Part shown: piece by piece, positions 45 through 19,117 of the stretch
How the letters are laid out: every line of letters begins with the position of its first letter
How positions within the stretch are numbered: position 1 is the first letter of the stretch
From: Bdellovibrionota bacterium
GTDB taxonomy: Bacteria > Bdellovibrionota_C > UBA2361 > JBIKUX01
Assembly (NCBI GenBank): GCA_044347345.1
Contig: JBIKUX010000023.1
Coordinates: 1 to 42,787, forward strand
DNA length: 42,787 bases
Reading direction: 5' to 3'
Program-made: the position numbers and the translations under genes
The notes under the pieces: generated by a model
Seen by the model: the letters and a program-made list of their open reading frames with translations, nothing else
Told to the model about the DNA's origin: nothing
The model's database searches: none

Positions 45-121
45 GGTGGGCGTAGCTCAATAGGTAGAGCACCGGATTGTGGTTCCGGTGGTTGTGGGTT
101 CAAGCCCCATCGCTCACCCCA
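45..121 (+). tRNA. tRNA-His (anticodon GTG) with G-1 and encoded CCA
   Basis: Acceptor stem GTGGGCG (46-52) pairs with CGCTCAC (111-117). The extra G45:C118 pair is typical of tRNA-His. Anticodon arm CCGGA-TTGTGGT-TCCGG, T-arm GGTTCAAGCC, CCA at 119-121. Confidence 0.97.
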
Positions 122-1064: not shown

Positions 1065-1256
1065 ATGAACACCAACGAAGTAATAGGTTCTGAACTACTC
1101 ACCGCTGAAGATGCAGCAGACATGCTCTCAATGAGCGTTAACGCATTTCGCATCTTCGTTCACCGCTACGGTAGCAAGATCAAAAAAGTAAAACTCGGTA
1201 AGCGAAAGACCTTCTACTACAGGTCAAGCATTCTTGCGCTCCTGCAAGAATGCTAA
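1065..1256 (+). CDS. Excisionase / AlpA-MerR-like HTH protein
   Basis: From ATG 1065: MNTNEVIGSELLTAEDAADMLSMSVNAFRIFVHR...KVKLGKRKTFYYRSSI, a winged-HTH xis pattern directly upstream of the integrase. Confidence 0.75.
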   Translation: MNTNEVIGSELLTAEDAADMLSMSVNAFRIFVHRYGSKIKKVKLGKRKTFYYRSSILALLQEC

Positions 1257-1300
1257 CTCGCATCAGGTTTTTAGTTGTTTGTTTTTTTGAAGTTGTATTT

Positions 1301-2374
1301 ATGAGCATTAAAGTGATCACGAACGGTAAGAAAGTTAGATATGACGTGCAGGTATCAGCAAGACACCCGATTACAAGGAAACGTGAGTTTCTTCGCCGTC
1401 GTGCAGATAATAAATGGGCTGCACAGCAGTTAGAAAAAGAGCTTTACCAAGAGTTGAAAGCAAAACAGTCAGGTATTCAACTGCCTAGTTGGTTGCATCT
1501 TGTTGCAGCGTATGAAGCGCAGTGTCTCATCAATAAAGCAGCATCAACCAAGCACAACGAGCTTTCGATTCTTAGTCATCATGCAACCCCTCTGCTTCAT
1601 TCAAAACTTGTAAATCAGATCACAGAAGTAGACATCAGAGAAATACTGAATCGCATTGACCCTGAAAGATCATTGAGTCTGAAACATAACGTACGAAAAT
1701 GCATCGCAAATGTCTTTAACTATGCGCTTGAGTGTAGATACATCACTGATAACCCATGCAGAAGAATCAAGCTTGCAAAAATACCTGAGCCATCGCTCAA
1801 CATTCTCACCGATGAACAGATCAAAACCTTTTTAAAGAAAGCAGAAGAGACGGGTATGGAATGGTTTCCAATCTGGGCGATTGCAATCTACACGGGCCTT
1901 AGAAGTGGAGAGCTAATCTCTCTTCGTTATCGCCATATTGACCACAATCAAAGTAAGCCAGTTATCAAGGTTCAAGAGAGCTGGACAAAGCAAGGCGGAT
2001 ACAAACCTTTCACTAAGAATAAGCAGGTGCGCACAGTTCCAATGAACAAGGAAGTTCAGCGCATCATTGAAAAGCTAAGAGCAGACAACCCAAACAACTG
2101 TAAACCCGAAGATTTTATCTTACCGCAAATACCTACCTGGAAGCAGGGAGACGCAGCGAAAGACCTTAAAGCGTTTCTTCAGGGGTGTGGTTTGCCTGTG
2201 ATTAGATTTCATGACCTTCGTGCTTGCTTTATCAGTCAGTTGTTACTGGGTGGTGTCCAACCTTCAGTAGTAATGAAGATGGTGGGCCACGGCGACATGA
2301 AAACATTGATGCGTTATTGCAGGCACACTGGTTCAGATGTGCTGGGTCAGACTGATGTCTTGGATTTTTCTTAA
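1301..2374 (+). CDS. int: Tyrosine recombinase / integrase (alternative start 1250)
   Basis: Catalytic motifs YTGLRSGEL (R), TKNK (K), FHDLR (HxxR), MVGHGD (H), TLMRY (Y), with an N-terminal arm-binding-like region. Confidence 0.95.
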   Translation: MSIKVITNGKKVRYDVQVSARHPITRKREFLRRRADNKWAAQQLEKELYQELKAKQSGIQLPSWLHLVAAYEAQCLINKAASTKHNELSILSHHATPLLHSKLVNQITEVDIREILNRIDPERSLSLKHNVRKCIANVFNYALECRYITDNPCRRIKLAKIPEPSLNILTDEQIKTFLKKAEETGMEWFPIWAIAIYTGLRSGELISLRYRHIDHNQSKPVIKVQESWTKQGGYKPFTKNKQVRTVPMNKEVQRIIEKLRADNPNNCKPEDFILPQIPTWKQGDAAKDLKAFLQGCGLPVIRFHDLRACFISQLLLGGVQPSVVMKMVGHGDMKTLMRYCRHTGSDVLGQTDVLDFS

Positions 2375-2388
2375 ACTATTTAATAACA

Positions 2389-2742
2389 ATGGAGAATGCA
2401 GTGGATTACCCAGATTACCTACACTTGAAGAAGAAATACAGAAGGCTGAGAAAGGTACTTAAAGAATCTGAAGCCCAAGCACTTCAGCGAGGCAAGTCCA
2501 CGGAGATCGAGAAAGTTTTGCTCGACATAGTACAAGCTGCGCAGGTTCTTTACGTGAAAGGTCTCATCAAAGACACTCCAGAGGTGATCGTTTTCAAATA
2601 TTTGGTGGATTGGTGGTTCGACGATACGGTGAGTGAGTTTCTCGATGGTCAAACCCCTGAATGGTATCAGTTAACGAAAATCAATAGATCCAGTCTCATG
2701 GAGGCGCGGCAGGCACCAAAGGGCCACATCGACATGCGTTGA
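2389..2742 (+). CDS. Hypothetical protein, 117 aa, basic helical N-terminus
   Basis: ATG ORF starting 14 bp after the integrase stop, co-oriented. No family recognised. Confidence 0.6.
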   Translation: MENAVDYPDYLHLKKKYRRLRKVLKESEAQALQRGKSTEIEKVLLDIVQAAQVLYVKGLIKDTPEVIVFKYLVDWWFDDTVSEFLDGQTPEWYQLTKINRSSLMEARQAPKGHIDMR

Positions 2743-2766
2743 TAGAACTTGCAGGTATAGAGAATA

Positions 2767-2774
2767 TATAAATA
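2767..2774 (+). promoter_or_regulatory. TATAAATA box (T4-type late promoter consensus) upstream of the structured region
   Basis: Exact octamer in intergenic DNA immediately 5' of the hairpin-dense region. No convincing -35 seen. Confidence 0.45.
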
Positions 2775-2779
2775 GAAAG

Positions 2780-3330
2780 TAGTTAATAGCGCATTTCCGT
2801 TGTTTAACGAGATGTGGTGAAAATAACGACCTTGTCGGTGCGAGAAGTGCTGTCTTGGTATTCAGTTGGCAACTAATACCATTCTGGGCGAAAGCAAAGT
2901 AAGAGACTGTCGTAAGAGCCAGGGCTGCAAAGTTGGAAACGCAGCCTATAACGCTGTAATGCGTGTGGAGACTAACTCTCAATCAACCTGTTCAACACGA
3001 AGTAGGAGCCAACCTACCAAGTGCCACGGTCAATCTCTTTGCTGTGGATTTACACTTGCCGCTGGTGCTGAATAAGCATGTATGGCGTCGTAAAAGTGAG
3101 ACAGGCTTAACCGCCACTTCCCTCGCAAGAGGTTGCGCTTTAGAGATTGTGATGAAGGGACCCGTACGCAAACCCTGACACAATACACCCCATAGTAGGG
3201 TGTATTGTATCTCCCCGACGCAAACTGGAACTTATAAGACCTAAAAACAGGAACATGCACTTCGTAAGAAGTGCAATAGAACCGAACGAAGTGAGGTTCT
3301 ATGATTCAAGGGCTTCTAGGCCTTGTATGC
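2780..3330 (+). ncRNA. Putative large structured non-coding RNA (~550 nt); boundaries approximate
   Basis: More than 12 back-to-back stems, e.g. TGGTATT/AATACCA (2856-2881), GGCTGC/GCAGCC (2923-2946), CAAGTG-CCACGGT/GCTGTGG-CACTTG (3018-3058), CCTC-GCAA-GAGG (3121-3132), an 11-bp stem at 3180-3208, TGCACTTC-GTAA-GAAGTGCA (3256-3275). GNRA loops on the + strand. Loop 3031-3038 is complementary to 3142-3149. Confidence 0.65.
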
Positions 3331-3436
3331 AACCTCAACTTGCTCCACATCGGCTGATCATTTCCAGAGCCTATTAGGACTTATTCCAAGCCAGAAACTA
3401 AAGTCTTCAAATACCCGCCACTGAGTTGCTCCTCCT

Positions 3437-3444
3437 TATAAATA
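3437..3444 (+). promoter_or_regulatory. Second TATAAATA box upstream of the small-ORF operon
   Basis: Exact octamer 38 bp before ATG 3483, with an AAGGA RBS in between. Confidence 0.45.
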
Positions 3445-3482
3445 CACAAGAGATACATGTACCCCTTTAAGGAAAACGACTG

Positions 3483-3722
3483 ATGAGTAAGCCAAGATCA
3501 AAGACTGCACAGATCAGATTATTATTACCTGAAGATTGGATACCTGAACTTGATAACCTGGCAGCCTCAAGGTTCCTAACGCGCCTTGGACTGATCAGAT
3601 ATTATCTTCGTTTCAAGATGAATGAGGAACTGACAACTCTTGCAGAGCACTTCAAGCAAACTGAGCAAAACAGACTTACTCATCAGCGCCTTTCTCGTAA
3701 GATTGATGATTATCGGAGATAG
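3483..3722 (+). CDS. Ribbon-helix-helix (CopG/Arc-like) DNA-binding protein
   Basis: TAQIRLLLPEDWIPELDNLAASRFLTRLGLIRYYL fits the strand-helix-helix pattern; RBS present. Confidence 0.65.
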   Translation: MSKPRSKTAQIRLLLPEDWIPELDNLAASRFLTRLGLIRYYLRFKMNEELTTLAEHFKQTEQNRLTHQRLSRKIDDYRR

Positions 3723-3725
3723 ACC

Positions 3726-3923
3726 ATGGCAAAAGTTATTTCCAAAGCTGAAGCGATAAAAATCATTAATCAACTTGAGCCACTTGAGATCTTACATGAA
3801 GCACTTGATCGTAATGAAACCATGCCAGTCAAGCAGACCAAGTTAACAAGGTTCATCAACTTGATTCAAAAACAGATCAAGGATGAGCGCGACATTTTTT
3901 GGATTGCCATTAAAGTAAAGTAG
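3726..3923 (+). CDS. Small hypothetical protein, 65 aa
   Basis: Tightly packed between co-oriented ORFs (3-4 bp gaps). Confidence 0.6.
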   Translation: MAKVISKAEAIKIINQLEPLEILHEALDRNETMPVKQTKLTRFINLIQKQIKDERDIFWIAIKVK

Positions 3924-3927
3924 TAAG

Positions 3928-4296
3928 ATGAAATCTTTCCGTCAGATTATTCAAGGTCAAGCCGAAGCAAAGCGTTCCAATAAGACCATAAAAGAAAGTC
4001 TCATCGGGAAAGGTTTTTCCGCGGTTCAGAATCGTCAGCACCAGACACTTAGAACGCAAGCACTTTCCAAGCTTTCAGCTATACAGAGCGATTGCCGTTT
4101 GGCGATTCAAGAAGATGATGAGCGTAAGCGCGAGGAACATCTATTTCATTTAATCTTTGATCTCGCTGCCACGCTGAAGCTCTTCGCTGAGATGTCAACC
4201 TGCACCAATAATATCAGCGCCATGGCAGTGTTTGATCAGGAAAGTCTAAAGAGAGAACTTGCTCCTGTAATCAAGTCCATTACACAGAAGCGTTAA
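3928..4296 (+). CDS. Hypothetical helical protein, 122 aa; N-terminus MKSFRQII resembles T4-like capsid-targeting leaders
   Basis: Third gene of the small operon. The leader resemblance was judged by eye only. Confidence 0.6.
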   Translation: MKSFRQIIQGQAEAKRSNKTIKESLIGKGFSAVQNRQHQTLRTQALSKLSAIQSDCRLAIQEDDERKREEHLFHLIFDLAATLKLFAEMSTCTNNISAMAVFDQESLKRELAPVIKSITQKR

Positions 4297-4436
4297 AATC
4301 ACCTCACTTGGCTTTAGCCCGCCCAAATAGTCCATAACTCATCAAATCCATTGACCATTCCAGGTCTTAGTGGTTTACTACTACCGTTTCGTTTCTATTA
4401 AGACCTATTAGACAAACTGTGAAGGTAAGAAGGCAA

Positions 4437-4643
4437 ATGGAAGTACATGATGCAGCCGAGCAGTGGGTGTCTGTTGAGCAGATTGCTCAACACTTAAATG
4501 TGAAGGCGTTCACTATTTACAAATGGCTCGAACGTAAAGACATGCCTGCTCACAAGGTCGGAAGACTTTGGAGATTTAAGATTACTGAGATCGATGAGTG
4601 GGTGCGCCGCGGTGATGCTGGTGAAGAGAAGCCCAAGAAATAG
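4437..4643 (+). CDS. Excisionase-family (HTH_17) DNA-binding protein upstream of hsdM
   Basis: WVSVEQIAQHLNVKAFTIYKWLE...MPAHKVGRLWRFKITEIDEWV, the characteristic family pattern often found before type I R-M operons. Confidence 0.88.
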   Translation: MEVHDAAEQWVSVEQIAQHLNVKAFTIYKWLERKDMPAHKVGRLWRFKITEIDEWVRRGDAGEEKPKK

Positions 4644-4667: not shown

Positions 4668-6152
4668 GTGATTACAGGTGAGTTAAAATCAAAGGTAGAT
4701 AAGGTCTGGGATGCTTTCTGGTCTGGTGGTATTTCAAACGGTCTTACCGTTATCGAGCAGATAACCTACCTTCTGTTTGTCCGTCGCCTTGATGAGCTTC
4801 ATACCGCAAGAGAGAAGAAAGCAAATCTTTTAAAGAAGCCGATAGAGGAACCAATCTTCCTAGATAACGATCAGGAGCAAAGACTTCGCTGGTCTAGATT
4901 TAAAGATTTAGGTTCACCTGAAAAGATGTATGAGCTTTTCAGAGATAAAGTTTTTCCATTCATAAAAGAAACCCTTCCGAATCGCCAATCAAGCGGCAAT
5001 GAAAGTGCATATGCAAAGTTCATGAAGGATGCGGTCTTTGTAATACCCACACCATCACTGTTTGCCCGTGTCGTTGACATGCTGAACGATATTCCGATGG
5101 AAGATAGAGATACCAAAGGCGATCTCTATGAATATCTTCTTTCAAAGATCGCATCTGCTGGAACAAACGGTCAGTTTAGAACTCCAAGACACATCATCAA
5201 AATGATGGTCGATTTAATGCAGCCAAAACCAGATGACATTGTGAACGACCCAGCTTGTGGAACCTGTGGTTTCTTAGTTGAGACTGGCGAGTATCTGCGG
5301 CGTGTTCATCCTGAAATATTTCACGATGAGAAGAAGAAAAATCACTTTAACAACAAACTCTTTTGTGGAACTGACTTTGACGCCTCTATGCTTCGTATTG
5401 GTGCCATGAATATGGTGCTGCATGGTGTTGAGAACCCACACATAGATCGTATAGATGCACTATCAGAATCAGGCAAAGGTAATCGTAATGCTTACACCTT
5501 AATCTTAGCTAATCCTCCATTCACTGGTTCATTAAACTATGACGAAGTATCCAGTGATCTGTTAGCTCTCAGTAAAACCAAAAAAACAGAGCTTCTTTTC
5601 CTTTCGCTTTTCTTGCAGCAGTTAAAGCCAGGTGGAAGATGCGCCTGCATTGTGCCTGATGGTGTTTTGTTTGGTTCTTCAAAGGCTCACGTTCAGATCA
5701 GAGAGTCATTAGTTGAAGGACACAAGCTTGAGGGAATCATCTCAATGCCGTCAGGTGTCTTTAAGCCTTATGCAGGCGTTTCAACCGCGATCATGATCTT
5801 TACTAAGACCAACTCAGGTGGAACTGATCATGTTTGGTTCTATGACATGGAAGCTGATGGTTTCAGCTTAGACGATAAGCGTGAACCTAAGCTTGAGAAT
5901 GATATTCCAGACATTCTTGAGAAGTGGGCGAAGAGAAATCCTAAGAAAGATACAGAGAGGAATGGTAAGGCGTTCTTTGTTCCGAAGAGTGAGATTGTTG
6001 AGAATAAATACGATCTCTCAATAAATCGGTACAAAGCGGTTGATCATCTTGAATCTTCGCATGATTCACCCACGATAATCCTTGATGAGCTTGAAAAACT
6101 TGAATCAGAGATTCGGCTTGAAATCTCCGCATTAAGGGAGTTGTGTCTGTGA
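4668..6152 (+). CDS. hsdM: Type I R-M methyltransferase subunit
   Basis: GQFRTPRHI, motif I DPACGTCGFL, motif IV NPPF. Confidence 0.97.
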   Translation: MITGELKSKVDKVWDAFWSGGISNGLTVIEQITYLLFVRRLDELHTAREKKANLLKKPIEEPIFLDNDQEQRLRWSRFKDLGSPEKMYELFRDKVFPFIKETLPNRQSSGNESAYAKFMKDAVFVIPTPSLFARVVDMLNDIPMEDRDTKGDLYEYLLSKIASAGTNGQFRTPRHIIKMMVDLMQPKPDDIVNDPACGTCGFLVETGEYLRRVHPEIFHDEKKKNHFNNKLFCGTDFDASMLRIGAMNMVLHGVENPHIDRIDALSESGKGNRNAYTLILANPPFTGSLNYDEVSSDLLALSKTKKTELLFLSLFLQQLKPGGRCACIVPDGVLFGSSKAHVQIRESLVEGHKLEGIISMPSGVFKPYAGVSTAIMIFTKTNSGGTDHVWFYDMEADGFSLDDKREPKLENDIPDILEKWAKRNPKKDTERNGKAFFVPKSEIVENKYDLSINRYKAVDHLESSHDSPTIILDELEKLESEIRLEISALRELCL

Positions 6153-7366
6153 ACGGAGAAAAGTATAGCTGGCAATGGGTGCGTAGCGGCGATGTCCTCG
6201 ATATTAGAGATGGCACACATGATACGCCTAAAAAAGCTGACCAGGGCTTCCCATTAATAACCTCCAAGAACTTATCAAAAGGGTTTATTGACTTTGCTGA
6301 GTCATATTTCATCAGCGCCCTAGATCATCAAGCAATCAAGAAGCGATCAGGTGTCTCAAGGGGGGATATTCTAATGCCCATGATTGGGACAATCGGAAAC
6401 CCTGTAATAGTGGACACGGAAGTTGAGTTCTCCATCAAGAATGTAGCTTTGTTTCGCAAAGAGGCTAGCCCATACGATGAAAGGTTTTTGTTTCATCTTC
6501 TCAAATCGCCGATAGTTGTACGGCAGCTTGACAAGGAGCAACGTGGTGGAACACAGAAGTTCGTTTCTCTTGGGAAGTTAAGAAATCTCGATCTACCGCT
6601 CCCTCCTCTCCCCGAACAAAAACGCATAGCAGTAGTCCTTGACAAAGCAAATGGCATTCGCCGAAAGCGTGAGAAAGCGATTGAGCTTACCGATTCATTT
6701 TTGAGGTCGATGTTTTTGGAGATGTTTGGGGATCCTGTTTCCAATCCAAAAAAATGGGACGTGATGAAAGTCGGAGAAGTTTGCGATTCGATTGTGCCAG
6801 GTCGGGATAAGCCGAAGAGCTTTACGGGAACTATGCCATGGGTTTTAAGCGATGATCTTAACCATGGTGATTTCACTTCTGTGTCGAAACAGCAGTTGGG
6901 ACTTACGGATGCAGAGATTACCGAAGTTCGAGCGCGAGTGATCCCCAAAGGCAGTGTCTTAATGACATGTGTTGGGAGACTAGGTGTTGTAAGTATTGCA
7001 GGCTGTGACTTGGTGATAAATCAGCAACTCCACAGTTTTCAATGTAAGCCAAAGATCAATAACCTTTTCCTTTGCGCGCTTCTTCCCTGGAGGAAGAAAT
7101 ACATGGAACAGCATGCCTCTGCGACAACGGTTCCTTACATGAACAAAACAACCTGCAACTCCATTCCTATAATAGTTCCACCCGTAGAACTTCAAAATCA
7201 GTTCGCCCGAGTGGCTTCGTCACACCTAACACTTAAAGCCAAACTGGGAAGTTCATTGCAAATGGCAGAGGCTCTATCAGCATCGCTATCCAAGAATCTA
7301 TTTGATGGAGTCACCGCAAGGGTTTCGCGTATTGCTCCATTAGAGGAGGCAGCACATGCTCTCTAA
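6143..7366 (+). CDS. hsdS: Type I R-M specificity subunit
   Basis: Two variable TRDs with conserved PLPPLPEQKRI, FLEMFGDP and VPPVELQNQF spacers; overlaps hsdM and hsdR. Confidence 0.95.
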   Translation: MSVNGEKYSWQWVRSGDVLDIRDGTHDTPKKADQGFPLITSKNLSKGFIDFAESYFISALDHQAIKKRSGVSRGDILMPMIGTIGNPVIVDTEVEFSIKNVALFRKEASPYDERFLFHLLKSPIVVRQLDKEQRGGTQKFVSLGKLRNLDLPLPPLPEQKRIAVVLDKANGIRRKREKAIELTDSFLRSMFLEMFGDPVSNPKKWDVMKVGEVCDSIVPGRDKPKSFTGTMPWVLSDDLNHGDFTSVSKQQLGLTDAEITEVRARVIPKGSVLMTCVGRLGVVSIAGCDLVINQQLHSFQCKPKINNLFLCALLPWRKKYMEQHASATTVPYMNKTTCNSIPIIVPPVELQNQFARVASSHLTLKAKLGSSLQMAEALSASLSKNLFDGVTARVSRIAPLEEAAHAL

Positions 7367-10300
7367 CTTCGACTTCATCCCACTTCAATGGTCAAAGCTA
7401 AAAGAAGATGCCTCCCACGCTGAGCAGTTTGCATTAACTCAGCCCCGCACTGCTGCCTTCTATGCAAGAAGAGCATTAGAAAAGATCGTTAACTGGCTTT
7501 ACGATTACGATAAAACCTTAAAGCGCCCATATCAGGATAATCTTGCAGCCCTTATTCACGAACCAACTTTTCAAAAACTAGTTTCACCTTCTGGTCTGTT
7601 TCAATATATCAGACTGATTCAAAAGATCGGCAATCAGGCTGCCCATAGCGATGTCCAGATCAGACAGTACGATGGAATCGAGATAGTAAAATCACTGCAT
7701 GGCGTACTCACTTGGGCGGTAAGACTCTATACCAAGGTTCAAGATTCTCCGACATTTAATAGCTCTCTGGTTCCATCGGTTGATGCCTCCACCGTTCTGA
7801 AAGAATCAAGAAGAACGATTGACGAGCTTCAAACTCGGCTTCAGTCAGAAGATGATCGCTATGAGCGAGAGCGTAAAGAACGACAAAAGAACGAAGAGGA
7901 AATAACCCGTCTTCAAAAAGAGATTGAAGAACTTAAAGCCCGAAATATTCAGAGGGTGAAAGAGATCCCCGAGATCATCACTGAGGCTGATACGCGCAAG
8001 TGGATTATCGATGTCATGCTCCGTGAAGCAGGTTGGGACAAGTTCGTTAATGCTAGAGATGTTGAATACCCTGTAAAAGGAATGCCGAACCCTAAGGGTG
8101 AGGGCTTTGTTGATTATGTGCTTTGGGGTGATGACGGTCTGCCACTTGGCATCGTTGAAGCAAAGAGAACAAGCAAAGACCCGATTGAGGGACAAAGACA
8201 AGCAGAGCTTTACGCAGATTGCCTCGAAAAAGAAACAGGTCAACGACCTATCATCTACTACACCAACGGTTATGAGATTTGGCTATGGGATGACAGGGTT
8301 TATCCGCCTAGACCAGTTCAGGGGTATGCAACAAAAGATGAACTACAACTACTGATTAATAGAAGAAAGATCAAAGGTTCGTTAAGAGATATTGAGCCAA
8401 ACAGAGACATAATAAACCGCCCGTATCAGATCGAAGCTGCTGCACGAGTAGTTGAACGTCTGGAGAACGAAAGACAAAGACGATCTCTCCTCGTAATGGC
8501 TACGGGTACGGGCAAAACCAGAATGAGCATCGCTGTTGTAGAGATGCTGATGCGCCAGAACTGGATTAAGAGAGTTTTATTCCTTGCAGATAGAACTGCG
8601 CTAGTTAAGCAGGCTAAAAAACGTTTTGCAGAACACCTGCCGAATGTTGGCGCTATCAATATCGTTAGCGAAACCGAGGAAGAAAATACTCGCTTGGTGT
8701 TCTCTACGTATCACTCGATGATGAATCTTATTGATGAATCAAAGAATGACGGCAAGAAGCGATTTGGTACGAACTTCTTTGATCTGATCATCATTGATGA
8801 AGCTCATCGATCTGTTTATCACAAGTTCAAAGCAATATTTGAATACTTCGATAGTTTGCTGATTGGTCTTACAGCAACTCCACGGTCTGAAGTGGGTAAG
8901 GACACCTACGGTCTTTTTAACTGTGAAAATAATGTTCCAACTCACTGGTACGAACTAGATCAGGCGATTGCAGATAAATATCTGGTGGAACCTAAGCCCA
9001 TTACGGTGCCAACAAAGTTCCATCGTGAAGGAATCAAGTACGATGAACTCACCCCTGACGAGCAGGAAGAGTATGAAGAGACTTTCTTTGATGATGAGAC
9101 TGGCACGATGCCAAAAGAGATTGAGCCTGCGGCATTAAATAGCTGGCTATTCAACAAAGACACCGTTGATAAGGTTCTCGCCCATCTAATGCAAAACGGC
9201 ATCAAGATCGAAGGTGGCGACAAGCTCGGAAAATCAATCATCTTTGCCAAGAATCACAATCACGCGATCTTTATTGAAGAGAGGTTTAACGTAAACTATC
9301 CGCACCTTGCAGGTAAGTTTCTTCGCGTCATTGATAATCAGGTCAAATATGCAGACACACTGATCGATGAGTTTGATGTAGCCACCAAAGACCCATTGAT
9401 TGCTGTCTCTGTTGATATGCTTGATACAGGTATCGACATTGAAGAGATAGTGAACCTTGTATTCTTCAAACGAGTCAAATCACGCACCAAGTTCTGGCAG
9501 ATGATTGGTCGTGGCACTCGTCTCTGTGAAGATCTCTTTGGTCCTGGGCAGGACAAGAAATGCTTCTATATCTTTGACTACTGTGAAAACTTTGAGTTCT
9601 TTGGCAAGAACCCGAAAGGCATAGAAGCTCAACCGCAAGAATCGATCAAAGAGAAGATATTTAAGCGAAGATTGCAGGTTGCAAGAATGCTTGATGCTGA
9701 TGCTAATAAATCAGTGGAGCTTTCAACTTTACATAAAGAGATACTTGATCAGCTCCACAATCAAGTCGCTACCGTCAACATTGAAAGCTTTGTAGTTAGA
9801 CCTCATCGCCGTTATGTAGAGCGATATATTGAACGAGATACCTGGGACAACTTAAAGCCGAATGACTATCACGATATTTCAAAGCATTTAAGCGGACTTC
9901 CTACACCTGATAGTGATGATGAGTTTGCAAGACGATTTGATCTACTTTGCTTAAACCTTGCTGTTTCATTCATTGAAGTAAGCAAGCGGCAAGAAGGCTA
10001 TAAAGAAAGCGTTGTTGATTTGGCGCGTTCACTTGAGAAGAAGAAAAACATTCCAGCAGTTGCAGCCAAGCTAGACTTTATCAGAACTATTCAGACTGAT
10101 GACTATTGGGAACACCTTAGCGTTCCTGCGATTGAGAAGCTACGAAAGGAGCTAAGAGAGCTTATCAAGTTTATTGATGCTGAAGGTGGATTAAGTCGGG
10201 TTTACACCAACTTTGAAGATGAGTTTGGTGAAGCTGTTGAAGTGCGAGAGTTTATCCCTGGCTATGGTGACCGTGAAAACTACCGACTCAAGGTGGAACG

Positions 10301-10739
10301 ATTTGTAAGAGAGCATCAAGACCACATCACCATTCGAAGGTTGATGCACAATAAGCCGATAACTTCTGGCGACATTCAGGGCTTTGAAGAGATCTTTTTC
10401 TCAGAGCAAGGCATCGGCGATAGAGATCAGTTTGAGAAGAACTTTGGTAAGCAGTCTCTAGGTCGATTCATTCGCTCAATAGTTGGTCTTGATCGAGATG
10501 CAGCCAAAGAAGCCTTCGGTGAGTTTCTTTCAGGCAAGAAGCTAGAAGCAGACCAGATCACCTTTATCAATCAGATCGTTGAACACCTTGTTAAGAATGG
10601 GGTGATGAACCCTGAGAGGCTGTTTGAACAACCATTTACAGATATTCACTCTGAAGGTTTGGCAGGTGTATTCCCCAATGATGCAGAACGTATTCTTGCG
10701 GTGATTGAGGATGTGAATAGGAGGGCTGAAGCAGCGTGA
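7356..10739 (+). CDS. hsdR: Type I R-M restriction subunit (EcoAI/EcoEI-like)
   Basis: VDY...IVEAKR nuclease motif, MATGTGKT Walker A, DEAHRS, QMIGRGTR. Confidence 0.96.
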   Translation: MLSNFDFIPLQWSKLKEDASHAEQFALTQPRTAAFYARRALEKIVNWLYDYDKTLKRPYQDNLAALIHEPTFQKLVSPSGLFQYIRLIQKIGNQAAHSDVQIRQYDGIEIVKSLHGVLTWAVRLYTKVQDSPTFNSSLVPSVDASTVLKESRRTIDELQTRLQSEDDRYERERKERQKNEEEITRLQKEIEELKARNIQRVKEIPEIITEADTRKWIIDVMLREAGWDKFVNARDVEYPVKGMPNPKGEGFVDYVLWGDDGLPLGIVEAKRTSKDPIEGQRQAELYADCLEKETGQRPIIYYTNGYEIWLWDDRVYPPRPVQGYATKDELQLLINRRKIKGSLRDIEPNRDIINRPYQIEAAARVVERLENERQRRSLLVMATGTGKTRMSIAVVEMLMRQNWIKRVLFLADRTALVKQAKKRFAEHLPNVGAINIVSETEEENTRLVFSTYHSMMNLIDESKNDGKKRFGTNFFDLIIIDEAHRSVYHKFKAIFEYFDSLLIGLTATPRSEVGKDTYGLFNCENNVPTHWYELDQAIADKYLVEPKPITVPTKFHREGIKYDELTPDEQEEYEETFFDDETGTMPKEIEPAALNSWLFNKDTVDKVLAHLMQNGIKIEGGDKLGKSIIFAKNHNHAIFIEERFNVNYPHLAGKFLRVIDNQVKYADTLIDEFDVATKDPLIAVSVDMLDTGIDIEEIVNLVFFKRVKSRTKFWQMIGRGTRLCEDLFGPGQDKKCFYIFDYCENFEFFGKNPKGIEAQPQESIKEKIFKRRLQVARMLDADANKSVELSTLHKEILDQLHNQVATVNIESFVVRPHRRYVERYIERDTWDNLKPNDYHDISKHLSGLPTPDSDDEFARRFDLLCLNLAVSFIEVSKRQEGYKESVVDLARSLEKKKNIPAVAAKLDFIRTIQTDDYWEHLSVPAIEKLRKELRELIKFIDAEGGLSRVYTNFEDEFGEAVEVREFIPGYGDRENYRLKVERFVREHQDHITIRRLMHNKPITSGDIQGFEEIFFSEQGIGDRDQFEKNFGKQSLGRFIRSIVGLDRDAAKEAFGEFLSGKKLEADQITFINQIVEHLVKNGVMNPERLFEQPFTDIHSEGLAGVFPNDAERILAVIEDVNRRAEAA

Positions 10740-12833: not shown

Positions 12834-12941
12834 ATTTCAGGACATTTCTAGGCTGGTCAAAAGTTGGATGCAAAAAGGCTGCAACGAAAATAAAGATCAA
12901 ATAATACCGATATATTAGACCCCTACAGATACTACACCCCA
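12834..12941 (+). repeat. attR-like right-end cassette, copy 1
   Basis: ATTTCAGGA (12834), GGATGCA-AAAA-GGCTGCA (12866-12883), AGATACTA-CACCCCA (ends 12941). Confidence 0.75.
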
Positions 12942-12976: not shown

Positions 12977-13253
12977 GGGCAAGCCCGATCATTACTCGAT
13001 GCAGTTGGAATCGCCAATAGCGAAGTTGGCTCCGACGAAGTCAGCTTTAGCTGACGAAGTCGAGCGGGCAAGCCCGACCATTACTCGATGCAGTTGGAAT
13101 CGCCAATAGCGAAGTTGGCTCCGACGAAGTCAGCTTTAGCTGACGAAGTCGAGCGGGCAAGCCCGATCATTACTCGATGCAGTTGGAATCGCCAATAGCG
13201 AAGTTGGCTCCGACGAAGTCAGCTTTAGCTGACGAAGTCGAGCGGGCAAGCCC
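12977..13253. repeat. Tandem repeat, 3 x 89 bp, with REP-like hairpins
   Basis: AAGCCC anchors at 12981, 13070, 13159 and 13248. Units are identical except T/C at 13078. Each contains CGAC-GAA-GTCAGC-TTTA-GCTGAC-GAA-GTCG and GGGC-AA-GCCC. Confidence 0.95.
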
Positions 13254-14807: not shown

Positions 14808-14915
14808 ATTTCAGGAGCTTTCAAAATTACACCAAAATTGGGTGCAAAAAGGATGCACGATTTCATAAAACCCAATAAAATCAAGGGGTTTAGAGGTGCC
14901 AGATACTCCACCCCA
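14808..14915 (+). repeat. attR-like right-end cassette, copy 2
   Basis: ATTTCAGGA (14808), GGGTGCA-AAAA-GGATGCA (14840-14857), AGATACTC-CACCCCA (ends 14915); same 32- and 69-bp offsets as copy 1. Confidence 0.75.
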
Positions 14916-15030
14916 GTATTGTCCCTTTGGGGAGTGTTTCGTTCACTTTGTTTTGTTCACTGCACGCAGCTTGGGGTTCGCCGTGGCGCTTAAAGCTATC
15001 GTGGCGCTTAAAGCTATCGCTCACCCCATT
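14916..15030 (+). repeat. ~115-bp segment homologous to 17317-17408, ending in a 15-bp copy of the tRNA-His 3' end
   Basis: ATCGCTCACCCCATT at 15016-15030 equals 109-123. Internal 18-bp tandem duplication CGTGGCGCTTAAAGCTAT at 14982-15017. Confidence 0.75.
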
Positions 15031-15074
15031 CATCCGATTTCACTCCCAACCATGCCTGCGGGTTTTCGGGCATA

Positions 15075-15668: not shown

Positions 15669-16526
15669 TTAATAGTCTCGTGAGAGAGATCTGAGCAGAA
15701 GTTCGATCTTCTCAATAACTGCTGCAAACTCTGCTGGCACATTCGCCTGGAACTCCTCCTCAAGAGCACCAATAAACCGCTTCCAGTTACGGCTCATCGT
15801 TTCTATTGCTTCTGAGTCGTATGATAGTGCTGTTGGGAGAGGTGTGCTGCGATGGTCAAAAACGGATCGGACGACTTCAGCGTGTTCCCGTGGATTAAAT
15901 TCAGCAAGTTGTGAAACCGCAATCAGATCATAGAAATCTTTCATTCTACTATTCGTACCACCTCGGTAAACGACCGCTTCCATCTTCTCAGCAAAGATAT
16001 ACGAGAGTGGGTATGCTTGAATTGATATTTCAGACTCAAAAAGTGGCTTGTCATTGAGAGCGAGTAGCGGCAGTGTTTTCTTCTCTGGCACGACTTGATC
16101 GCCTATACCGAGATCCATTCTGATCTTCGTTCTTGTTTGACCAAGACACGCTGTGGTTCTTACTTCATATCCTGGATAGTTCATATGCGGATGGCTCATC
16201 ACTTGTACTTCAAGCCCTTCAAAGGTGAAGCCATCGTCATAAGGCATCGATAGAATCTCCTCAATCAACGTTCGTATCGCTTGAACAGTTCCCTCGGTGC
16301 CAGTAAAAGAGAAATCAAGATCTATCGTCTCTCTCCCAAGACGTAAGTATTTGCCGAGCAAAAAGCCGCCTTTAAAAATAAAGTTTTCAAGCTTATCTGA
16401 ACGTGCGAGACGAGCGAGAAACCGCTCAAGCGCAAGCGCTTTCCACACATCATTAAAAGCTCTGTTTTGAGCTTTCGCTATCGCCTTGATTCTGTCTTTC
16501 AATGAGCGCTCAAGATTCTTGCTCAT
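15669..16526 (-). CDS. abiEii: AbiEii-family nucleotidyltransferase toxin (type IV TA)
   Basis: FIFKGGFLL, RETIDLDF, AEKMEA and NSRMKDFYDL motifs. Confidence 0.92.
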   Translation of the reverse strand: MSKNLERSLKDRIKAIAKAQNRAFNDVWKALALERFLARLARSDKLENFIFKGGFLLGKYLRLGRETIDLDFSFTGTEGTVQAIRTLIEEILSMPYDDGFTFEGLEVQVMSHPHMNYPGYEVRTTACLGQTRTKIRMDLGIGDQVVPEKKTLPLLALNDKPLFESEISIQAYPLSYIFAEKMEAVVYRGGTNSRMKDFYDLIAVSQLAEFNPREHAEVVRSVFDHRSTPLPTALSYDSEAIETMSRNWKRFIGALEEEFQANVPAEFAAVIEKIELLLRSLSRDY

Positions 16527-17116
16527 GTGGTAAATGCCTCCACATATTTTTCTATCGGCGTTTTGAGTTTCCGAGCATACTTCCTGAGCTTCACGAGATC
16601 AGGCTTCCCATGTTTCCCCGAGAGATATTCTTTGAGTGACTTAATGGCAGTTTCAGTTGTGAGAAAGCGAAATGAATCGACAAGCGTTCTTTCCTTATCA
16701 AAAATAGGTATGTTCACTGAGCCAATCTTCATGCGAGTACTTCCTGTTCTAACATCTCTCATCCTGATTATTTTTGTCTTCGGTCTTTTGGGAGCAAATT
16801 GTTCATTCGGTATGGCAATCCAGAACTGCCTTGGAATTTCCTCGGTGAGCTCGTAAAGAGCAAGTGCAGAGATGAGACAAACTCTTCCGTTGGGAATGCT
16901 TCGAGCAGTTGCTATGAGGTCTTCCCACTCAAGGGGAACTTCTTTGCGCGTCGATTCGTTTCCGCAATACACACCACGGCTAAGCTTCTCTACTTCTCCT
17001 TTCTTAACATAGTACGCGAGTAGGCTAGGGCTTACTCCAAGAGCGCGAGCTTCAGCGGCAGTAAAGCTTGGCTGTTTTAGGAGCTTTTTTATTCTGCTTA
17101 GAGCGGTCTTTGGCAT
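16523..17116 (-). CDS. abiEi: AbiEi-family antitoxin / transcriptional regulator
   Basis: N-terminal wHTH (LSRGVY), VCLISALALYELT, ERTLVD; overlaps abiEii by 4 bp. Confidence 0.9.
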   Translation of the reverse strand: MPKTALSRIKKLLKQPSFTAAEARALGVSPSLLAYYVKKGEVEKLSRGVYCGNESTRKEVPLEWEDLIATARSIPNGRVCLISALALYELTEEIPRQFWIAIPNEQFAPKRPKTKIIRMRDVRTGSTRMKIGSVNIPIFDKERTLVDSFRFLTTETAIKSLKEYLSGKHGKPDLVKLRKYARKLKTPIEKYVEAFTT

Positions 17117-17208: not shown

Positions 17209-17408
17209 ATTTCAGGAGCTTTCAGAATTGTTCAAAAGTTGGATGCAAAAAGGATGCAACGAAAATAAAAATCCTGTATTCACAAGGGTTTAATGCTGTT
17301 TAGATACTCCACCCCAGTATTGTCCCTTCGGGGAGGGCGTTTTGTTCACTTTGTTTTGTTCACTGCACGCAGCGTGGAGTTCGCCGTGGCGCTTTTAAAC
17401 TATCGCTC
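17209..17408 (+). repeat. attR-like right-end cassette, copy 3, plus downstream homologous segment
   Basis: ATTTCAGGA (17209), GGATGCA-AAAA-GGATGCA (17241-17258), AGATACTC-CACCCCA (ends 17316), then GTATTGTCCCTT...TATCGCTC similar to 14916-15022. Confidence 0.75.
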
Positions 17409-17475: not shown

Positions 17476-18340
17476 TCATTTCTTTAAGCCGTCGATATAA
17501 TCTGAAATCGACTTTTCGGTTGCCAACCAGTTACGAGCCTTTTTGTGCGCATCAATTTTTCCTTGTCGAGCTAGCAGGCTTAAATATTCCTGTGAGTAGG
17601 GGCACTTTTTGGCAGGAACAGATAATGGAACATATTCGCTACTTCCTAGAGCTCCACAACTCTCAAGATACAAATCAAGAGAGCGTTCCACAGCTTGTGC
17701 AATAAGCAAGACAAATTCTTTATAGTTGCCGCTGTTAGCCTGGTTGAGGGAGCGATAATACTGTTTTTATGTTGTTCTTTAAAATGATAGCTGGCGGATA
17801 GCCAAATTTAAAAAAGAGAAGATTCATTAACAATCGGGCGGTTCTCCCGTTTCCGTCAAAGAATGGATGGATCCAAACAAACCTATGATGAAATCTTGAT
17901 ATCAGCTCAACTTGATGAAGCTTGTCGGGGTTATCATTTGTGTATATCAATAGCTCCTTCATCAGGGCGCTGACCTTTATAAAATTAGGAGGGATGAAAT
18001 TTGCTCCTAGTATTCGGATTTGACCGTTTCTATATCGACCCGTGAATCCAGATTCAATATTCTCTAAAACCAAGCTATGAATGCTAAAAATATCTTTCTC
18101 ATTTAGAGTATACTTTGGTCTAGCCAGTTCCTCGACAAAGTAAATTGCTTTCTCATGGTTTTTTGCCTCAAAGTGCTCACGGAGATTTCTGCCCTTGATA
18201 GTTATTCCCTGCTCAAGAACCAATTGAGTTTCTTGCAACGTGAGAGTGTTGCCTTCGATAGCGTTTGAATTGTAGGTCCACTCGATAGCCAGTTCAGATT
18301 TAAGACGTTGTAATACTACTTGGGGTAGTGGGCGTAGCTT
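17476..18340 (-). pseudogene. Frameshifted, N-terminally truncated Fic-domain protein with C-terminal HTH
   Basis: HPFFDGNGRTAR Fic motif. The frame switches at the A5 run (+ strand T5 at 17764-17768) and continues as KQYYRSLNQANSGNYKEFVLLIAQAVERSL into ORF 17476-17709. The 5' end abuts kdpA-derived DNA. Confidence 0.85.
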
Positions 18341-19117
18341 CGCAAGTTGCGATAAAGCAGCTTGGAACAAACGGGGGCTTATACTTTAACGTTAATTTAG
18401 CTCACCCACTAGAGAATCCGACACCGTTGTCCAATTTAATTAAGCTCATCTCTATTCTTCTTATTTCTGGAGCGTAGCGTGTTGCTTTGCTTGCGGACGA
18501 CTCGTAAAGGATACGCGTCAGTCAAGGGGGGTAGCGTTATATTCTATCATGACCGCTGTGAGCCTTGTGGCAACGCTCTACACCCTCTACTTCGAGCAGT
18601 ATCCAACCCCAAAGCTATTCCCTGAGACGGTAGCGGAGTACTAGAGCCTACCTCAGAGATGCCTGGCTGTAATATGGAGGGTAAAGAAACACGGCTTGGA
18701 GAACAGACTCAAGCTTGTGGGCGGTGGCAACCACGGCGGCAAGTAACGGCTCAGTTAACCCCATGCACCACTCATACACACCATTTGGAGGACTCATTCC
18801 TCTAGCGATAATGCAACTTGGCGAAGTGATCTGTGGCGGTGTCGGCTCTAGTCTTTAGGAAGTGATCGCTTTTGTCCTCGTTACTGTCTTTATAGCGGGT
18901 ATTATGGTCGGACGTATGCTCTCGAGTATTTGGGCGAAAAAATCGACGTCTTTGACATCAAGATGGTTTCAGTAATTGTACTCATCCTGAGCGTTCTTGT
19001 GCTTGCGGGAGCCGCTCTTACTATTGCTGCATGGATAGGGAGTGCGCGTTGGTCTCCAACTCTGGCTCTTACGGCTTTACGCAAATCCTCTATGCTTACA
19101 CATTAATGGATAACAAC
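18334..19117 (+). pseudogene. kdpA: Decayed internal fragment of K+-transporting ATPase subunit A
   Basis: Manual translation across stops and frameshifts gives [93 protein letters not shown]; all are KdpA signature segments in the correct order. Confidence 0.88.

Follow-up and report, generated by a model that had tools for sequence, protein, structure and literature searches.

A conserved, doubly pseudoknotted RNA-like element beside a regulatory operon in integrative islands of Bdellovibrionota

Introduction

What, if anything, is specified by the 740-bp gap at positions 2743-3482 of a tRNA-integrated island is the question raised by the window analysed here, that is, the whole 42,787-nt stretch of Bdellovibrionota DNA. 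An earlier reading of its letters (the original prediction) had seen no credible gene in this gap and sixteen potential stems, and had proposed an undescribed class of large, pseudoknotted RNA carried by a mobile element. To our knowledge, few bacterial non-coding RNAs exceed ~400 nt and have complex conserved folds, and each such large RNA that we know to have been characterised so far is a ribozyme, the core of an RNP or an unexpected RNA assembly.

Results

Genomic setting of the gap

The window carries a tRNA-His gene (46..121, + strand; Rfam search of the window) that is the integration target of the island, and a repeat search revealed a duplication of its 3' end (109-126) at 15016-15033, which bounds an island of ~15 kb. 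In island order, an HTH repressor-like gene (350-898, - strand) is followed by a small HTH gene, the tyrosine integrase of the island (1250..2374, +; Pfam Phage_integrase, E=5e-20) and a 117-aa ORF (2389..2742, +), which is the upstream neighbour of the gap and is not conserved at the other loci described below. Beyond the gap lie the gene for a 79-aa protein (3483..3722, +), for which weak leads point to a possible ribbon-helix-helix (RHH) fold, and, in the same operon, those for 65-aa and 122-aa proteins (3726..4296, +). A 74-aa HTH protein of the excisionase family (4419..4643, +; 54.7 bits against a cut-off of 28.8 for the NCBIfam excisionase domain) is encoded next, upstream of the type I restriction-modification (RM) cargo genes (4668-10739). 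This protein also resembles MAD1 of the methylation-associated defence system, at 65 bits and under the cut-off of 80, and is near-identical between islands that differ in cargo.

Searches of Pfam, PHROGs, NCBIfam, the PDB (by sequence) and the ESM Atlas returned no function for the 79-, 65-, 122- and 117-aa proteins. Relatives of the 79-aa protein come from Bdellovibrionota or Bdellovibrionales MAGs and are absent from the viral contigs searched. The family of the 122-aa protein has 13 members only among 5.8 billion proteins, suggesting that the whole module is lineage-restricted.

Elsewhere in the window, a gene-poor stretch of the island holds three near-identical tandem copies of an 89-nt unit (12977-13253; 99-nt copies with a 10-nt overlap). 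Repeated segments with the core TTGGATGCAAAAAGGATGCA are located at 259-301, 12841-12883, 14815-14857 and 17216-17258, and a repeat of roughly 90 nt at 14901-14991 and 17302-17394; their arrangement suggests that several islands, or att-like remnants, lie one after another on the 3' side of tRNA-His. AbiEii/AbiEi (15669-17116, -) and a Fic protein (17735-18370, -) are encoded in the segments that follow.

Homologues and distribution

In BLAST-type searches of sets of 61, 91 and 124 genomes from the order or phylum of the window, the core of the gap was detected at 71-74% identity in two further genomes (G060 and G022), which, together with the source of the window, represent three different families of one order. 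An exact-pattern scan of metagenome contigs yielded nine loci with a sole homologue among them (L026, 71% identity), and plasmid and phage collections gave no DNA match. When all 124 genomes of the phylum were scanned with a covariance model of the central domain of the element (R1), the three copies already known scored 166-173 bits, and four further full-length matches appeared at 27.6-33.8 bits, namely in G057, G078 and G074 and at another locus in G060. The four are readily aligned with one another and, judged by their sequences, are a diverged subtype B; the window, G060, G022 and L026 make up subtype A. Altogether, the eight copies were found in 6 of 124 genomes and one metagenome contig, all of them from one small phylum of lake MAGs (Bdellovibrionota). 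An R1 match of 25 bits (G067) could not be aligned and was treated as false, and two of only 21-22 bits (G055 and G123) were left as doubtful.

A 26-base pattern common to both subtypes occurs in five stretches of a 185,579-species collection, all from Bdellovibrionota MAGs, and has zero matches in viral contigs, where three motif scans likewise returned nothing fitting the RNA model. Scoring of L041-L169 with R1 returned L127 alone, the second G060 copy, apart from a doubtful match of 17.9 bits. A loose genome pattern had at least 120 matches, with GC-rich chance matches among those listed. Seven of the ten viral contigs matching a loose motif (L160, L161, L164, L166, L167, L168 and L169) contain an identical 52-nt span; they probably share some conserved sequence, and none fits the RNA model.

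Extent, coding potential and strand

Homologue conservation and helices delimit an RNA-like element of ~525 nt in subtype A (2780..3305, +), its 5' end inferred from a promoter-like box and its 3' end from where conservation stops. An ORF check bore out the absence of a credible gene from the gap, and each motif quoted in the original prediction was found in its place. None of the four subtype A copies interrupts the frame 2866-3075, but its start and stop positions differ, no ORF has a common extent among the copies, and variable columns are distributed over the three codon positions as 29/66, 31/66 and 40/70. Indels among these copies measure 1, 3, 8 and 32-37 nt. The 37-nt insertion of G022 consists of two extra hairpins, and L026 has a hairpin ~33 nt larger at another site, within a region of two variable hairpins (2951..2980, +). 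Hairpin insertions of this sort are typical of structured RNAs. At the level of sequence comparison, 2780-3305 is confirmed as a conserved, non-coding and strongly structured element.

Folding energy agrees with this assignment. On the + strand, 2780-3330 reaches -172.4 kcal/mol, as compared with -153.8 +/- 6.6 for 100 dinucleotide shuffles (z = -2.81; 0/100 as good), the comparison by which the original prediction was to be judged, and two homologues give z = -3.38 and -4.95. The - strand of the same stretch has z = -3.59; since both strands score, energy demonstrates structure and cannot assign the strand. The + strand is indicated by the G-U or U-G pairs present in 29 of the 319 cells of the eight-sequence table for the central domain (hand count), because the opposite strand would have A-C mismatches in their place, and also by hairpin P1 of the 5' domain, composed largely of G-U pairs, and by the constant co-orientation with the downstream operon.

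Central domain and pseudoknot PK2

In the four subtype A sequences, the central domain (3001-3154) forms 41 pairs in seven helices, with 98.8% of cells paired and six pairs changed on both sides; 0 of 500 shuffles match this pairing or covariation, and slid controls are 35-47% paired. When all eight sequences are considered, in an alignment fitted to nested helices by R1 in which helices Hc and Hf of subtype B are shifted slightly out of register and two rows begin inside Ha, 42 pairs are formed with 95.6% of 319 cells paired and 20 compensatory pairs, a level attained by 0 of 500 shuffles, versus 34-49% paired and 1-5 pairs changed on both sides in slid controls. As there are only eight sequences in two tight groups, and the pairing statistics ignore kinship, these compensatory changes represent few independent events.

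The domain opens with hairpin Ha (3002..3017, +), which reads GUAGG/CCUAC or GCGGG/CCCGC, and GCGAG/CUCGC in subtype B. It is followed by a composite stem (3018..3058, +) with compensatory pairs, in which an outer stem (3018-3023/3053-3058) encloses hairpin Hb (3024-3029/3042-3047); the outer stem (CAAG.../...CUUG) is present in every copy, with a U-A to C-G change. Hairpin Hc (3065..3079, +) has a GUGCU/AGCAU stem and, in three copies, a GAAA loop. In the three-way junction beyond it (3084..3139, +), helix Hd (3084-3088/3135-3139) closes He (3094-3119) and Hf (3121-3132, GCAA loop). A longer-range closing helix had been suggested here, GCGTCG/CGACGC (3085-3090/3216-3221), and had to be given up: L026 joins the 5' side of the window with the 3' side of G060, and these sides cannot pair, 3084-3088 pairing with 3135-3139 instead.

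The pseudoknot of the original prediction, which we term PK2, joins CAAUCUCU in the Hb loop (3031..3038, +) to AGAGAUUG (3142..3149, +) and is borne out by full covariation between the subtypes. In the eight-sequence alignment its 8 pairs, 3 of them compensatory, are 96.9% paired, although PK2 had been left out of the model that aligned the sequences. The strands read AAUCUCU/AGAGAUU in subtype A versus UUGUGUU/AACACAA in subtype B, so that three of the eight pairs flip (UA/AU, CG/GC and CG/GC); within subtype A only one-sided G-U wobble changes are seen. Near the 5' end of subtype B (L034-L036 and L040), an invariant 11-nt ACAUAGCGACC is complementary to the PK2-forming region of the Hb loop; both sides are invariant, and their pairing is a possible alternative conformation.

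The 5' domain, PK1 and the 3' domain

The 5' domain begins with hairpin P0 (2792..2814, +), variable or absent in homologues, and hairpin P1 (2836..2852, +; GGUGC/GUGCU), whose several G-U pairs form on the + strand only. A three-way junction follows (2853..2906, +), in which Pa (2853-2856/2903-2906) closes P2 (2857-2880, +) and P3 (2883-2901, +; GAAA loop and tandem G-A); compensatory pairs among the subtype A copies number 3 in Pa, 6 in P2 and 4 in P3. Hairpin P4 (2923..2946, +) has an invariant stem and a conserved 12-nt loop. This loop contains GUUGGA (2932..2937, +), which pairs with UUCAAC (2991..2996, +) in what the alignment indicates is a second pseudoknot, PK1, beyond the one originally predicted: the strands are GUUGGA/UCCAGC in G060 and GUUGAA/UUCAAC in G022, with 1 compensatory pair. 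With its helices registered by hand on the subtype A alignment, the 5' domain comprises 33 pairs in these four sequences, with 131 of 132 cells paired and 14 compensatory pairs, as compared with 37-45% paired and 0-3 compensatory pairs in slid controls. The 5' domain of subtype B has no confident alignment to that of subtype A and its helices were read by eye; a PK1-like arrangement was recognised in this way, with a loop GAUGGA opposite UCCAUC just 5' of a conserved ACGA.

Three hairpins of the 3' domain are found in both subtypes with differing sequences. Hg (3180..3208, +) has another sequence and the same structure in subtype B, with a repeated CGYAAAC motif on its flanks; Hh (3256..3275, +) has a GUAA loop in the window and C-GAA-G in other copies; and Hi (3276..3302, +) carries an 11-nt loop, GAACGAAG(U/A)GA, kept in subtype A but for one variable base. 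From its pseudoknots and conserved junctions, the RNA is predicted to adopt a compact tertiary structure.

The sixteen stems with which the gap had been tiled fared unequally. Ten recur in homologues, conserved or with compensating changes (2856-2881, 2923-2946, 3002-3017, 3018-3058, 3066-3078, 3094-3119, 3121-3132, 3180-3208, 3256-3275 and 3276-3302). Three (2791-2815, 2951-2964 and 2968-2980) are kept in position only, each copy having a hairpin of some sort there in a sequence that cannot be aligned. The remaining three lack conservation: a better-supported helix overlaps 2827-2837, only two of the four subtype A copies could form 3156-3176, and 3307-3325 occurs in the window only.

Promoter-like boxes, operon and modular context

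Upstream of the element lies a promoter-like box, TATAAATA (2767..2774, +), which is exact in six of the eight copies, variant in G022 and missing in L034. A second TATAAATA box, accompanied by AGATACA, forms a promoter-like region of the RHH operon (3437..3457, +), which is also kept in islands without the RNA-like element. A simple scan found neither a sigma-70 consensus promoter nor a 3' intrinsic terminator, and an independent RNA gene is therefore not told apart from a leader on these grounds. The 24 sequencing runs on record for this stretch are all of DNA. Between the element and the operon box, an inverted repeat ATCCAC-N7-GTGGAT (seen in L002, L004, L014 and L015; ~3333-3352 in the window) is kept in most loci and degenerate in the window and in L011; by its sequence and place, it is a likely operator. 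Separately, the 12-mer ATAGCGCATTTC occurs both at 1005-1016, in the leader of the small HTH gene 5' of the integrase, and at 2786-2797, at the 5' end of the RNA; a window this large would be expected to contain 12-nt repeats by chance. A similar AUAGCG is found near the 5' end of subtype B RNAs.

All eight copies adjoin, on its 5' side and in the same orientation, an RHH-like gene for a 78-79-aa protein, at an estimated distance of roughly 130-220 nt. Two small ORFs come after this gene, and then, in the window, L026 and the subtype B locus L170, the excisionase-family HTH gene; in G060 an XRE-type HTH gene replaces it, and the contig of G022 stops before that position. The cargo, of defence type and variable wherever it was visible, ranges from type I RM (window) to an SNF2-like helicase (L026), methyltransferases (L170), and an RT-like gene with type III RM (G060). 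In the last of these, the RT-like protein is apparently split over two ORFs (RVT_1, E=2.3e-7), and the cargo at 5825-8483 of locus L029 (G060:C63) includes the XRE HTH gene, a 458-aa RNase_T-like exonuclease and the type III RM system; the RT and the exonuclease may constitute a defence system.

Conversely, the upstream neighbour of the element is different at every locus, and the proteins encoded there have no mutual similarity, which speaks against the partnership with the 117-aa protein that had been proposed. The proposed link to the downstream small proteins holds as far as adjacency and co-orientation go (8/8), but the operon is also present without the RNA: the islands L011, L014 and L015 have the same operon and promoter-like region and no RNA-like element, indicating that the RNA is dispensable for the operon. 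In L026, a subtype A element stands beside small proteins resembling those of subtype B loci. This mixture indicates that RNA and operon recombine as modules and argues against a tightly co-evolving RNA-protein pair.

The closest RNA-less island is L011, whose integrase is roughly 85% identical (by eye) to that of the window. There, the slot that in the window contains the 117-aa ORF and the RNA is taken by a 258-aa protein (1930-2706) with an HxH-type motif (by eye) and sub-threshold matches to rolling-circle Rep-like proteins (Pfam E=0.04-0.07, PHROG E=0.005).

Comparison with catalogued RNA families

The element matches no family of Rfam 15 (4227 models, including tmRNA, RNase P, group I/II introns and riboswitches). 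In the whole window, tRNA alone passes the gathering threshold; with permissive filters, the best match in 2600-3600 is mir-374, at 22 bits against a 54-bit cut-off; and six homologous loci gave only a weak tRNA-Sec-like match located elsewhere. The strong Rfam match that, according to the original prediction, would have removed the novelty was not seen, and this agrees with its remark that no hallmark of tmRNA, RNase P or group I/II introns is visible. ROOL (RF03087, 574 positions) has no match at E<=0.001 in the whole genome of the window (G000), in a search that had no positive control, as 14 control genomes gave none either. GOLLD is absent from the Rfam results for the window and the six loci, obtained with a library in which the presence of a GOLLD model is unconfirmed. 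A full-text search of the literature retrieved no description of such an RNA, and our claim of absence is limited to the texts covered by that search and to Rfam 15. Within these bounds, homologue conservation, compensatory changes and the lack of an Rfam match support the proposal of an undescribed large, pseudoknotted RNA class on a tRNA-integrated mobile element. Its placement among structured non-coding RNAs follows from compensatory helices in excess of the controls, in few lineages and in alignments that were model-fitted or hand-registered.

Discussion

We consider that the + strand of ~2780-3305 probably, although far from certainly, specifies a member of an uncatalogued family of large non-coding RNAs tied to the regulatory module of the island. 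Conservation, + strand, helices and both pseudoknots are demonstrated by the comparative analysis. The family would consist of compactly folded RNAs of ~500-530 nt, carried by integrative islands of a small Bdellovibrionota-like phylum, with a 5' domain (a hairpin, a three-way junction and a hairpin with the PK1 loop), a central domain (hairpins, a second three-way junction and PK2) and a 3' domain of three hairpins. The RNA would be transcribed from its own TATAAATA box in the direction of the RHH / small-protein / excisionase-like operon, and we infer that it acts within this regulatory (excision/induction) module, most likely modulating it as a stably folded RNA or a scaffold of RNA and protein rather than as a sequence-specific antisense RNA.

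The element might alternatively be a long structured 5' leader of the RHH/excisionase-like operon, with transcripts from the upstream box running through it into the operon and its fold controlling their elongation, processing or stability in cis. Its position immediately 5' of the operon and in the same orientation in 8/8 copies, with no intrinsic terminator found between the two, would be expected of a leader. However, the operon has a TATAAATA/AGATACA box of its own and an operator-like inverted repeat between the RNA and the ORF, both of which are also present in islands without the RNA, and no alternative terminator/antiterminator pairing was found. Moreover, ~500 nt with two pseudoknots far exceeds the needs of any leader known to us, and we regard this explanation as unlikely, if worth keeping in mind.

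A self-contained accessory RNA could also have settled as cargo in a variable slot of the island, where it might be a ribozyme, might prime replication in place of a protein replication module, or might serve in defence or counter-defence. The segment between integrase and operon carries unrelated genes in each island, among them the 258-aa protein of L011 with its weak Rep-like matches, and the many invariant unpaired stretches together with the pseudoknots would recall catalytic or ligand-binding RNAs. Yet the Rep-like matches are not significant, the element is always at the operon-proximal end of the slot, and neither a cleavage site, an R-loop-type G-rich tract nor iterons were seen (the gap 2743-3482 contains no iterons or tandem repeats that we could find), so that we hold such an RNA to be rather improbable. 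Similarly doubtful, on the same sequence-based footing, is a bolder idea, according to which this is a new large, doubly pseudoknotted RNA class with an activity of its own (a ribozyme, or an RNA-only or RNP machine) that forms a swappable module of integrative defence islands and possibly replaces a protein gene of sister islands, for example by initiating replication once the island has been excised.

Such islands may be single-stranded during replication or transfer, and the conserved fold could in principle be one of DNA, namely a single-strand origin, a transfer origin or a packaging site folding as the single-stranded + strand. G-T wobbles and compensatory changes would equally keep such a fold, and by energy the - strand folds at least as well. 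Nevertheless, no Rep or relaxase was recognised in the RNA-bearing islands, so that Rep does not co-occur with the element as a rolling-circle single-strand origin would have it, and the lone Rep-like candidate sits in the element-less L011, where a single-strand origin would predict the reverse; RNA is the better fit to the size, the two long-range pseudoknots, the GNRA loops, the tandem G-A and the promoter-like box, and a role at the DNA level appears very unlikely. A decayed or unusual protein-coding gene is scarcely credible, since the frame 2866-3075, though open in 4/4 subtype A copies, has differing starts and stops, near-even variation over codon positions, indels of 1, 8 and 32-37 nt, and changes that are paired across helices.

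For an element of this size, the comparative support for a folded RNA, including two covarying pseudoknots, is unusually clear. Its very narrow known distribution limits its general impact until a function is found; the defined context of an integrase island with defence cargo and a regulatory operon makes that function testable by deletion or surrogate expression. More broadly, uncultured lake relatives of predatory bacteria carry RNA families that are missing from Rfam.

Among known systems, the ColE1 RNA II pre-primer and the single-strand origins of rolling-circle replicons are likewise non-coding, strand-specific structures of several hundred nucleotides, and the slot of our element holds a possible replication gene in another island; in the present case, however, neither origin features nor an antisense RNA or a Rep partner came to light. 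The immunity leader of phage P4, with its CI RNA, offers a parallel in setting, being an untranslated structured region 5' of a regulatory operon in a tRNA-integrated integrase element with defence cargo. The CI RNA of P4 is a small molecule that base-pairs with leader repeats, whereas the element described here has no Rfam match and forms a duplex with the operon leader that is no better than those of shuffles; antisense pairing was rejected on the basis of this crude unrestricted duplex test (8 shuffles each). HEARO / OMEGA-type and bridge RNAs are also structured, pseudoknotted RNAs located near a recombinase in a mobile element, but here there is no adjacent IscB/TnpB/IS110-type gene and the integrase is not a constant neighbour. 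A guide-RNA role was likewise set aside, as complementarity to the att core amounts to one 8-mer (2.6 expected by chance per shuffle) that is not conserved in G022 (by eye). Finally, ROOL and GOLLD differ from the element in that neither sequence nor structure gave a match (with the presence of the GOLLD model unconfirmed) and in that the host here is an integrase island and not a prophage. They are nonetheless alike in exceeding 500 nt, in having many helices and in being carried by mobile DNA; GOLLD was reportedly first seen in lake metagenomes and is said to occur near tRNAs.
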